A stretch of DNA of 27,712 bases from Promethearchaeota archaeon (lineage in GTDB: Archaea; Asgardarchaeota; Lokiarchaeia; Sigyniarchaeales; SOKP01), in the NCBI GenBank assembly GCA_016839585.1, contig JAEOTZ010000007.1, positions 1-27,712 of the forward strand, read 5' to 3'. The notes under the pieces are model-generated. The model saw only the letters and a program-made list of their open reading frames with translations. It had not been told where the DNA came from and made no database searches. Below, piece by piece: positions 21,707 through 26,984 of the stretch; positions within the stretch are counted from its first letter, which is position 1; each line of letters begins with the position of its first letter. The translations under genes were made by a program, and so were the position numbers.

Positions 21707-22120
21707 ATTAATATCATAGCAACAAGAAAAGAGGAAATAAGTAAAACTGCGATTGATGTATTTAGTTTTTGTCATCTATTTTTTGGATTCATTTTATATT
21801 TAATTACGAATTCTATTATTATTACAATCTTCGGAATAGCACTTCATCTTATTTGTTTAGGGTGTATTCTATTTTATAGTATATTTTGGGAAATACTTGA
21901 GAATTATTTCTTTATAAAAATAAACCTTAAATTTGGAAGAAGAAGAGATAGCATAATAAATTCTTTTGTGGATACTTGTTTTTTTCTTCTTGGTGGGGTC
22001 ATCTCGATGTTCAATTTAAATTTTAGATTTACCTATTCCTTAATGACCACTCTGATCTTTTTAAATGGACTAGCTATAATATTATTTGTATATGCTAAAA
22101 AAATATTAAAAATAATATAA
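21707..22120 (+). CDS. Membrane protein with DUF2585-like metal-binding motifs; non-canonical (ATT) or lost start; not in ORF track
   Basis: Intact frame 21701-22120: IDVFSFCHLFFG...FWEILEN...RRDSIINSFVD, 4 TM; AGTGA SD-like sequence 6 nt before ATT. Confidence 0.6.
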   Translation: MNIIATRKEEISKTAIDVFSFCHLFFGFILYLITNSIIITIFGIALHLICLGCILFYSIFWEILENYFFIKINLKFGRRRDSIINSFVDTCFFLLGGVISMFNLNFRFTYSLMTTLIFLNGLAIILFVYAKKILKII

Positions 22121-24864: not shown

Positions 24865-25458
24865 ATGCAATTATATACTGTGTATGAAAATGGAGCTTTA
24901 AGGAAAGTCGAAAAGATTAACTTCAGTGAAAATAGAGTTTTTCTAATTGATGATATTAAAAATATATATTTGTGGTTTGGTTCAAAAACTTCTAAAAAGA
25001 AAAGAGAATATGCTGTTAATAGGGCTAATATTTTAAATGCAAAAAGGAAAGAGATTGCAAAGATTCAGACTATAATCCAAGGTAAGGAATTTGGAGCTTT
25101 TCTTGCCATGATCGATATTTTAAAAAAAGGTATAGAGCAAGATCTTCAAAAAGAGAGACGTCATGAATTAGAGTTTGATATAGAAGATACAATGGAGCTT
25201 ATTGAATCAGGTTTAAACCCTGATTTTGAAGCTGAAGTTGCGCTCGCAGCATATAGTCTATCTCAAGAGAAAAGAACTTATGAAGATTTATGCAGAACCC
25301 TAGCTAAGATCCAATTAAAATTTATAAAAGGCAGAAAAAACCTTACAGTAGCAGAAATTAATAAAAAATCAAAAGAGATTTTTAAATCATCATCTACTTA
25401 TGAGGAACTGTGTTGGTTGATTGCTGAATTAAATTTAATGAGCAAAAAAGTCCTTTAG
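24865..25458 (+). CDS. Gelsolin-domain protein with helical C-terminal domain (1DGelX-like)
   Basis: FSENRVFLIDD...IYLWFGSKTS...A...QGKEFGAF gelsolin signature; C-terminal repeat TYEDLCRTLA / TYEELCWLIAE. Confidence 0.75.
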   Translation: MQLYTVYENGALRKVEKINFSENRVFLIDDIKNIYLWFGSKTSKKKREYAVNRANILNAKRKEIAKIQTIIQGKEFGAFLAMIDILKKGIEQDLQKERRHELEFDIEDTMELIESGLNPDFEAEVALAAYSLSQEKRTYEDLCRTLAKIQLKFIKGRKNLTVAEINKKSKEIFKSSSTYEELCWLIAELNLMSKKVL

Positions 25459-25707
25459 TGTTAAAATTCTCAATATCAATAATTATCAAAATAAATAATC
25501 CAATCGACCATTTTTAATTTGTTTTTTAATTATGGTAATTTTGATTTTTTTCACTTTAGGTTATCCTTTCTGGATTTTTTACTAAATATTCGACTATCCT
25601 TTATAATAATGCATATTTCCTTGAAAAATTTTAATTGAATATCTATTCAAATAACAAAAAGTAAATTTTTTATAGTATTGAAAGAGATAAAATATAAGTT
25701 GATAAAA

Positions 25708-25929
25708 ATGAGTTCAGAAATACTAGAACCTAATGATTTAAGAAAAGGTAAATTAAGAAAAATTGTAATTATAATTAGTGCTATCGCCTTGATAACATTG
25801 ATTGCGACAATCGCAGTGCTTTCAATTTCTCTAAATAAAACTGCAGACGATGGAAACGGAGGACCTAGTTGACTTTGTTTCAATTTTTTATCTCTGATTT
25901 TCAATATATCAATGCTTTATTTCATGTAA
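25708..25929 (+). CDS. Candidate small membrane selenoprotein (73 aa, TGA 25870-25872 read as Sec55, U-x-C); 54 aa if TGA is a stop
   Basis: MSSEILEPNDLRKGKLRK-TM-NKTADDGNGGPS(U)LCFNFLSLIFNISMLYFM*; SECIS-like hairpin 25 nt after the TAA. Confidence 0.6.
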
Positions 25930-25954
25930 TATTAATAAGTAAAAATTCAATTTA

Positions 25955-26004
25955 GCTAGAATGGATGAATCTTGCGAGAAAATATTAGTCGCAAGATGAC
26001 TAGC
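25955..26004 (+). promoter_or_regulatory. Eukaryote-type (AUGA_AA_GA) SECIS-like element
   Basis: GCUAG-AAUGG-AUGA-A-UCUUGCGA-GAAAAUAUUAG-UCGCAAGA-U-GA-CUAGC. Confidence 0.72.
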
Positions 26005-26054
26005 CTTGCAAAGGTTCTAGCGTCATTGTTTAATTTAGTCTTTAAATTAGAGAA

Positions 26055-26984
26055 TTAATAATACGACCAATAAATCTGTTCATTATATGTTGATTTTTTA
26101 ATTATGTTTTTTGATTCAAGTTTTTTTAATCGATAGATTATATCTTCTTTTTTAAAATTATTAGAAGAAAAAGTGTTTATAATTTGATTTTGTCTCATAG
26201 GGTGCCTCTTTATTATATTTAGCAATTCTTTTTCAAAATCTTGAGAATAGAGATAAAAATTTCCCATCTCAGGAAGACTTATATCAGAATATGAACCAAA
26301 TATTTCATCTAATAATACAAAAATACTTTTATCTGGTATTTTAACCCATTTTTCAAGAGGAGGTCTAAGTGGAATGTTAATATCTATTTTATCTGGTTTA
26401 ATTAAATCTATTTTCTCCTTAATTTTTAAGAGCTCTTTTTTAGAATCGTTGATTGCTTTCATTATCATAATTTCAATCCAGAACTTACCCTTAAATAGGC
26501 TTCTAAAATCTATGAAACCTTGTATTACAGACTCAAAGTCTATATCTGGATGAGGTCTGTTTATTTTTATAAAGGATCTTTCATCCCCTGCATCTAAACT
26601 AGGTAAAACAATATCACTTAATAATAAAGCTTTTATAACTTCTTCTTTGTACAATAAAGCCCCATTTGTTATTACGCAGATCGGTTTATTTGAAAATGTT
26701 TTTGCTTTTAAAATTAATTCTTCTAAATCTTTATACAAAGTGGGTTCACCACTTCCTACAAATGTGATATAGTCAAAGTTATCTTTGTTTTGTTTAATCG
26801 CTTCTTCTATTTCAACAATAATTTCATCTTTTGGATAATAATTTCTGCGTTCATTAGTAAAATTAGTTGTTTTTCCTAATTGACAATAGATACATTGATA
26901 ATTACAAGTCTTTAAAGGGAGAGGATCAATTCCTAATGATCTTCCTAATCTTCTACTAGGAACTGGACCATATACGTATTTCAT
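26055..26984 (-). CDS. Radical SAM protein (COG0731-like, wyosine/MiaB-related)
   Basis: YGPVPSRRLGRSLG N-terminus, CNYQCIYC, GSGEPTLY, ITNG, PSLDAG, INRPH. Confidence 0.9.
   Translation of the reverse strand: MKYVYGPVPSRRLGRSLGIDPLPLKTCNYQCIYCQLGKTTNFTNERRNYYPKDEIIVEIEEAIKQNKDNFDYITFVGSGEPTLYKDLEELILKAKTFSNKPICVITNGALLYKEEVIKALLLSDIVLPSLDAGDERSFIKINRPHPDIDFESVIQGFIDFRSLFKGKFWIEIMIMKAINDSKKELLKIKEKIDLIKPDKIDINIPLRPPLEKWVKIPDKSIFVLLDEIFGSYSDISLPEMGNFYLYSQDFEKELLNIIKRHPMRQNQIINTFSSNNFKKEDIIYRLKKLESKNIIKKSTYNEQIYWSYY

Follow-up and report, generated by a model that had tools for sequence, protein, structure and literature searches.

Seven selenoprotein families are listed for the Asgard archaea (Huang, Xiao and Zhang 2024, PMC11227280) and 11 for the archaea as a whole in a 2026 review; other Asgard genome papers give the same set. 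The Lokiarchaeial members described so far (HdrA-VhuD/FrhD, VhuU/FrhA and peroxiredoxin (Prx)-like proteins; PMC4989117, PMC11227280) depend on a selenocysteine insertion sequence (SECIS) that lies in the 3' untranslated region (UTR), near the stop codon, and on a dedicated machinery for selenocysteine (Sec). Here, we describe a gene with the same recoding signal in the same place and the same Sec machinery. It is located in a stretch of 27,712 nucleotides (nt) of a Promethearchaeota archaeon of the Lokiarchaeia (positions 1 to 27,712, forward strand, of contig JAEOTZ010000007.1, assembly GCA_016839585.1), hereafter called the window, to which all coordinates without a contig name refer. Our analysis indicates that positions 25708-25929 of the + strand are very probably a genuine selenoprotein gene in which the UGA at 25870-72 is read through under the direction of the SECIS. 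In contrast to the known Lokiarchaeial selenoproteins, the protein is small and membrane-anchored, and it has neither a Pfam or NCBIfam family nor relatives in a cysteine (Cys) form. It represents a new family with a known recoding mechanism, encoded by an unannotated gene.

The initial annotation of this DNA had proposed an undescribed selenoprotein that gene calling would truncate. Indeed, no such small membrane family is among the seven Asgard or the 11 archaeal families of the published lists that were searched, and the public annotation of the gene ends after 54 or 64 residues. Published selenoproteome searches relied on homology to known families or on Sec/Cys pairs. Since no relative of the family is known and no Cys form has turned up, these earlier methods miss it, and annotation truncates its gene. 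Here, a membrane-anchored, lineage-specific family is found in which only Sec is invariant, and thus the use of Sec in Asgard archaea reaches beyond the hydrogenase/heterodisulfide-reductase and peroxiredoxin enzymes. Moreover, the cassette is very small (a 222-nt reading frame and a 67-nt SECIS), which makes it a convenient substrate for studying how a eukaryote-like SECIS works without SBP2.

A lokiSECIS behind the small reading frame

The small open reading frame (ORF) begins with the ATG at 25708-10, passes the in-frame TGA at 25870-72 and ends with the TAA at 25927-29. Translation, the family alignment and profile matches support a selenoprotein gene of 73 codons plus TAA at 25708-25929 on the + strand: If the TGA is read as Sec (U), the product has 73 residues and runs through ...GGPS-U-L-C into a hydrophobic tail. 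The SECIS begins 25 nt 3' of the TAA. It occupies 25955-26021 (+ strand), and covariance models, the published features and covariation agree on a Loki-type (type I, eukaryote-like) 3'-UTR element with three helices. The core at 25965-25999 (+ strand) consists of the AUGA (25965-68), a perfect 9-bp upper helix (25969-77 paired with 25989-97), the 11-nt loop GAAAAUAUUAG (25978-88) and the GA (25998-99), and its 9/11 geometry is common to the other type I elements of the genome. The lower helix is formed by GCUAGAA (25955-61) and UUCUAGC (26015-21), with an alternative GCUAG/CUAGC pairing also present. It encloses a G+C-rich side hairpin, CCUUGCAAAGG (26004-26014, + strand), that follows the GA, precedes the second strand of this helix and is supported by its identity with a known element and by covariation of the family (helix 3). 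The positions of ORF, TGA, TAA and hairpin in the initial annotation were all exact. As it had also stated, the core is confined to the + strand, the only strand matched by the covariance models, and the two + strand genes before the ORF have TAG as their stop codon and lack an internal TGA. The element is intergenic, since the convergent radical SAM (S-adenosylmethionine) gene ends at 26055.

The lokiSECIS has been described as an AUGA, a 9-bp stem, an 11-nt loop that starts with As and has a terminal AG, and then a GA (Mariotti et al. 2016, PMC4989117). The general model admits stems of 7-15 bp with at most two mismatches, loops of 8-20 nt, and GA or AA 3' of the stem. All six published lokiSECIS features are present in the window hairpin; its loop has an A at four of the first five positions and ends with AG.

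Generic tests for hairpins are weak in this genome, which comprises 3.45 Mb with 29% G+C and is 99% complete. The folding energy is unremarkable (z = -2.2), no Rfam family matches the hairpin at the gathering score (there are only chance matches at expectation values (E) of up to 10), and a loose AUGA..GA hairpin pattern, with 553 matches in the genome, is not specific. A descriptor that demands the side hairpin and the lower helix as well has 35 matches as compared to 17 in the reversed genome. Therefore, the genome's own selenoprotein genes were used as the standard. The covariance model R2 was trained only with the SECIS elements of FrhD (four copies), HdrA, FrhA and the AhpC/TSA-type Prx of the same genome, all of type I and supplied as ungapped 47-nt windows; a mixed alignment of type I and type II elements was abandoned as MAFFT gave no structurally sensible result. 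R2 is a rebuilt version of the model R1 without the element of a TGA-containing gene on contig C60, which was omitted because this gene has no known family; the outcome was unchanged. Over the 3.45 Mb, R2 detects the seven training sites, the C60 gene and the window hairpin, and nothing else above 19 bits. The window hairpin reaches 42.3 bits (E 6.9e-6 genome-wide, span 25959-26005), and the weakest training member 44.2 bits; with R1, it has 41.2 bits and the overall picture is the same.

Two further observations concern the structure of the element. First, the side hairpin CCUUGCAAAGG is letter-for-letter identical to that of the FrhD SECIS on contig C79 of the same genome. Second, in 29 elements of the family 90% of the cells are paired, as compared to 33-50% in slid controls; compensatory (two-sided) changes occur in 13 of the 19 pairs and are spread over all three helices, and none of 500 shuffles reached the observed values. 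The hairpin, which the initial annotation had already taken for a SECIS, is a lokiSECIS.

In-frame TGA codons are also present in two SelD genes, four FrhD/VhuD genes, one HdrA and one FrhA gene of this genome, as well as in a Prx-type AhpC/TSA gene at a U-x-x-C site. An AUGA..GA/AA element follows each of these known-family genes on the 3' side, and in all the non-SelD elements the stem strand measures 9 nt and the loop, of 11 nt, reads AAAAAU..UAG. Seven other type I elements with 9/11 geometry were recovered by the descriptor, and an eighth, on contig C24, by the covariance models. When eight SECIS elements of known genes (six non-SelD and both SelD) were read by eye, the 3' strand of the lower helix was preceded in each by a side hairpin rich in G+C. 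This hairpin, often ..CCUUGCAAAGG.., is found in type I and type II elements alike, creates a three-way junction and has pairs that covary among the elements of the small-protein family (helix 3); no mention of it was found in the available part of the lokiSECIS paper.

The Sec machinery that the initial annotation had called for is encoded in the genome. The SepSecS gene (489 bits) is located at C86:58379-59680 and adjoins a gene for a tRNA-Sec with a UCA anticodon (C86:59756-59872, - strand). Due to a 31-nt insertion in the T-arm, this tRNA scores below the Rfam gathering score (34.6 vs 47 bits); it is also overlooked by ARAGORN, but apart from the insertion it agrees with the tRNA-Sec model. 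In addition, there are a SelB-like gene, a PSTK-like kinase gene and the two UGA-containing SelD genes. Judged from this complete gene set, the organism is able to make Sec. In the mechanism that we propose, the SECIS at 25955-26021, together with the tRNA-Sec and the SelB-type factor, would cause the ribosome to read the UGA at 25870-72 as Sec and not as a stop.

Conservation of the UGA and of the frame beyond it

When six-frame translations were searched with the read-through protein, most genomes of its genus yielded weak matches, nearly all of them with exactly one TGA. The alignment of 16 members reveals a basic N-terminus, one hydrophobic helix, a glycine (Gly)-rich stretch and Sec, usually followed by x-Cys, and besides the start methionine Sec is the sole invariant residue column. 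The family profile matches 91 of the 161 genomes of the class (46 of 53 in genus g1, 28 of 42 in genus g28, all five in genus g18 and all three in family f6); in the sister family f2, with 14 genomes, it has no match. In a phylum-wide search with the profile, 68 of the 77 matches at E <= 1e-4 have an in-frame TGA. The other nine comprise one match that ends short of a TGA that is actually present, two second copies ending in TAA, and five look-alikes of other classes, four of which are Cys-rich. The ninth, G102:C136, was rejected as a Cys homologue: It is an internally duplicated copy with the TGA out of frame and the SECIS still there. Since TGA accounts for only 13% of the stops among the long ORFs of this genome, one cannot credibly explain how a mere stop codon would have been kept as TGA across genera.

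The TGA and the SECIS occur together. In 45 of 51 TGA-bearing loci, R2 gives exactly one match, which is downstream and on the strand of the gene; the six loci that it misses have variant loops still recognized by the descriptor. In the two TAA paralogues and in four non-TGA look-alikes, R2 detects no SECIS. The two TAA copies, both from genus g28 (G119:C17:147989-148141 and G121:C134:49-186), combine a long Gly run with a TAA close to where the Sec codon would be; they are paralogues without Sec or else copies in decay. The initial annotation had looked to Asgard relatives for a conserved TGA, for conservation past it and for a co-occurring SECIS; the codon is found across genera, with sequence and frame conserved beyond it and with the SECIS beside it.

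The distance between the UGA and the SECIS core varies from 37 to 125 nt across the family. Among 31 members, the frame after the TGA is open for a median of 28 codons, as compared to 3 and 16 in the other two frames, and in 22 of them it closes 14-23 nt 5' of the SECIS core. Close pairs show an excess of third-position differences, e. g. 5/1/10 and 0/1/5 at codon positions 1/2/3. For the subfamily of the window protein, five distinct sequences from ten loci of several metagenomes were compared. Their tail keeps a constant length and the pattern F..(L/I)S(L/V)I(F/Y)N...LY despite many nucleotide changes, and U-L-C alternates with C-U-H-Y while the position of the TGA stays. With this alternation, a Gly stretch reduced to GNGG-P-S, a short and strongly hydrophobic tail and a different neighbourhood, this subfamily is distinct.

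The simplest alternative holds that the TGA is an ordinary stop, that the product is a membrane peptide of 54 residues, and that the hairpin is a kink-turn (bound by L7Ae) or a stability or termination element unrelated to Sec. Such a reading would fit the public calls at 54 or 64 residues, the TAA-ended paralogues without a hairpin in two genomes, the fast divergence of the tails and the fact that no RNA run is listed with the locus. Against it stand the RNA model, which in this genome matches only sites 3' of TGA-containing selenoprotein genes, the TGA in 68 of 77 matches in spite of its 13% share of stops, the frame that is open up to the SECIS, and the joint gain or loss of hairpin and TGA. 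We consider an ordinary stop very improbable.

Several points nevertheless weigh against translation of the UGA as Sec, and they concern the tail, the paralogues, the spacing, expression and homologues. (i) The tails are unrelated between subfamilies, and coding conservation after the UGA, clear within subfamilies, is weak between them. Only one or two residues follow Sec in two genomes, and genus g18 ends with U-C or U-G. Between the window and the nearest genome, all seven changed codons of the tail are non-synonymous. (ii) The TAA copies without a SECIS imply that the anchor and the Gly stretch can persist without Sec. (iii) The UGA is only 37-47 nt from the SECIS core in some genera, a spacing that possibly falls below the minimum proposed for lokiSECIS. 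(iv) No RNA run is listed with the locus. (v) The Cys homologues that the initial annotation had sought as support did not turn up: An index of 5.8 billion proteins (51 word-index matches) and 1.84 billion representative proteins (43 matches in an exhaustive hidden Markov model search) contain no Cys-form homologue. Such homologues are the customary independent support for new selenoproteins and not a defining requirement. The database members are either cut at the UGA or, in every longer protein, carry W at the Sec codon, which looks like the result of gene calling under a code with TGA=Trp.

Genus g28 contains three loci, L092, L093 and L099, in which the frame after Sec ends at a second TGA just 5' of the AUGA of the SECIS. 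According to a published idea, a UGA that is too near the lokiSECIS acts as a stop, and the second TGA of these loci fits this proposal.

Architecture and possible chemistry of the protein

The N-terminal segment of the protein (residues 1-18, 25708-25761, + strand) carries the basic cluster RKGKLRK and would be cytoplasmic according to the positive-inside rule. It is followed by a transmembrane helix (residues 19-42, 25762-25833, + strand) that is predicted both by the hydropathy window and by a helix at residues 8-45 in the AlphaFold2 model. Next comes a short tether rich in asparagine, aspartate and Gly (residues 43-54, NKTADDGNGGPS, 25834-25869, + strand), which is equivalent to the G-rich stretch, typically GGGG, that precedes Sec in the family. 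The Sec codon 55 (25870-25872, + strand), assigned by the TGA at the aligned position in the 68 of 77 strong matches, is followed by Leu-Cys, giving U-x-C. The 18-residue hydrophobic tail after Sec (25873-25926, + strand) is supported by its conservation in the subfamily and by the open frame, and it corresponds to a predicted helix at residues 55-72. The AlphaFold2 model, calculated with the family alignment and of moderate confidence (predicted local distance difference test score 67.5), thus consists of helix 8-45, a loop and a helix 55-72 that begins at Sec; the tether NKTADDGNGGPS has no structure in it. The tail of the window protein is hydrophobic enough to dip back into the membrane, and the tails of other subfamilies are amphipathic.

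The charges are distributed in the same way throughout the family. In each of the 31 members, two to seven basic residues precede the helix, and the tether that follows is neutral or acidic; the net charge averages +2.5 before and -0.8 after the helix. If the positive-inside rule is applied to this distribution, the N-terminus is in the cytoplasm and Sec outside. The Sec residue would thus sit at the outer face of the membrane, held by a short Gly-rich tether on an N-in anchor; it is 5-13 residues away from the membrane in 29 of the 31 members. Cys is found at position +2 relative to Sec in 24 members and at -1, -2 or +3 in three, and four have none.

We propose that the product starts with a basic cytoplasmic N-terminus, crosses the membrane with one helix and continues through a 12-residue Gly/Asn/Asp-rich tether into Sec-Leu-Cys and the 18-residue hydrophobic helix. 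It would expose a redox-active selenol, usually as a selenenylsulfide with the neighbouring Cys, and its target may be a partner protein, or a small oxidant or chalcogen, at the membrane surface.

The main alternative chemistry would be the binding of a metal by the U-x-C pair. According to this idea, the protein is a real selenoprotein as well, but Sec, with or without x-Cys, serves at the cell surface as a binding site for a metal or metalloid (Cu, Ni, Hg, or a sulfur/selenium species) instead of undergoing redox cycling. The motif resembles the C-x-C sites of metal-binding proteins, and the partner Cys is movable or even absent. Moreover, the family shares some features with Cys-rich membrane proteins. 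Two of the 16 members weakly match PF12669, the family of FeoB-associated Cys-rich membrane proteins. In other Asgard classes, the profile of the small family detects Cys-rich proteins with N-in anchors and tails of repeated C-x-x-x-C, at E values of 3e-6 to 1e-4 per genome. PF12669 and the Asgard proteins L111, L113 and L114 have the same succession of one transmembrane helix and a short Gly/Cys-rich segment. However, the best PF12669 match has E 0.11 and is not significant, and the Asgard Cys-rich proteins have many Cys residues, no TGA and no SECIS; their similarity lies mostly in the basic and transmembrane part, so that homology to the Sec family is only a candidate relation. In addition, no transporter or metal gene is among the conserved neighbours. 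Taken together, we regard metal binding as rather unlikely.

The small N-in anchored proteins L111, L112, L113 (family f18) and L114 (family f13), in which the outer tail is composed of C-x-x-x-C repeats, may be sulfur analogues of the Sec family.

A second comparison concerns the eukaryotic selenoproteins SELENOK and SELENOS. They, too, are small single-pass proteins with Sec after a Gly-rich stretch and a 3'-UTR SECIS with an AUGA/GA core. In some members of the small family Sec is the penultimate residue, and their ends, ...GGTG-U-G or ...GGG-U-C/G right before the stop, recall the GG-U-G endings of SELENOK/S. The similar layout, the Asgard lineage and the eukaryote-like SECIS could be taken as signs of a true evolutionary relationship with this group. 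Yet PF10961 and PF06936 are matched by none of 16 members even at E <= 10, and the charge distribution predicts N-in/C-out with Sec outside, the opposite of SELENOK/S. The tether of 5-13 residues contrasts with the long Pro/Gly-rich cytosolic domain of the eukaryotic proteins, and most members of the small family differ from them by a Cys at +2 and a helical tail after Sec. Furthermore, the family profile has no match in the 14 genomes of the sister family f2, and no eukaryote-specific selenoprotein family is reported for Asgard archaea by Huang et al. (PMC11227280). Common descent therefore deserves little credence. As the initial annotation had surmised, the resemblance to SELENOK/S, which is one of overall design, is a layout analogy only.

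A more far-reaching view, possible but doubtful, is that the selenol at the outer face is obligatory. The protein would then be the first exported or surface-exposed archaeal selenoprotein, with a chemistry impossible for sulfur, as the missing Cys form would indicate, and it could stand at the archaeal start of the SELENOK/S Gly-rich-Sec proteins after an inversion of topology. In any case, the family provides a concrete point of comparison for the origin of SELENOK/S-type proteins and bears on the origins of eukaryotes.

Gene neighbourhood and further observations

The small ORF is the sole + strand reading frame between the upstream gelsolin gene and the SECIS. The gelsolin gene (24865-25458, + strand) encodes a 197-residue gelsolin-repeat protein (PF00626, E 4e-9) and ends in TAG. 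Gelsolin-repeat proteins are among the eukaryote-like cytoskeletal proteins of the Asgard archaea. On the other side, the convergent radical SAM gene (26055-26984) faces the small gene tail-to-tail at a distance of 33 nt from the SECIS, and a NifU-like gene comes next. The initial annotation had asked whether the hairpin might track this radical SAM gene. This is not so: The gene is present at only two of the first 17 family loci, that of the window and one other. In the subfamily, loci L106-L108 have another gene in place of the radical SAM gene, and L105 has another in place of the gelsolin gene; ORF and SECIS are retained either way. As read from these gene orders, the SECIS belongs with the small ORF and not with the radical SAM gene.

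This neighbourhood also bears on the idea that the small protein is the precursor of a modified or secreted selenopeptide that is matured by the radical SAM enzyme encoded at 26055-26984. The tail-to-tail arrangement with the radical SAM and NifU-like genes does recur in several loci of the subfamily. However, 15 of the first 17 family loci, as well as L106-L108, lack the radical SAM gene, the encoded enzyme has no SPASM or peptide-maturase signature above threshold, and in the small protein it is the anchor and Sec that are conserved rather than a leader and a core. A precursor of this kind is extremely unlikely.

In genus g1, the small Sec gene is directly preceded in about 20 of 29 loci by the gene of a polytopic membrane protein, F1. 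This conserved protein of about 335 residues is restricted to the Promethearchaeota and has no Pfam family, and its neighbours in the atlas are uninformative. In the genome studied here, F1 is encoded elsewhere (C42:30043-31047), without a small Sec gene beside it. A complex prediction for F1 and the N-terminal 47 residues of the adjacent small protein had a score of 0.00 and gave no answer either way.

An A/T-rich TATA-like box, TTTTTTATAG (25666-25675, + strand), can be read from the sequence about 33-42 nt 5' of the ATG and is probably the small gene's own promoter. The 90 nt 5' of the ORF recur almost unchanged in four more loci of the subfamily, and a fifth has a similar stretch; this is not the case in the nearest genome, G032. 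An antisense ORF of 85 codons (25647-25904) was dropped as it is not conserved in the relatives. The DNA of the window also occurs in marine-sediment metagenomes.

Finally, the TGA-containing gene on contig C60 is a 105-codon ORF (C60:21710-22027) with one in-frame TGA in a thioredoxin-fold-like context (…SST-U-TLAF-C…) and without a Pfam family. Its SECIS (22047-22093) scores 43.5 bits with the model that was not trained on C60, and the ORF may be a second unlisted selenoprotein of this genome.

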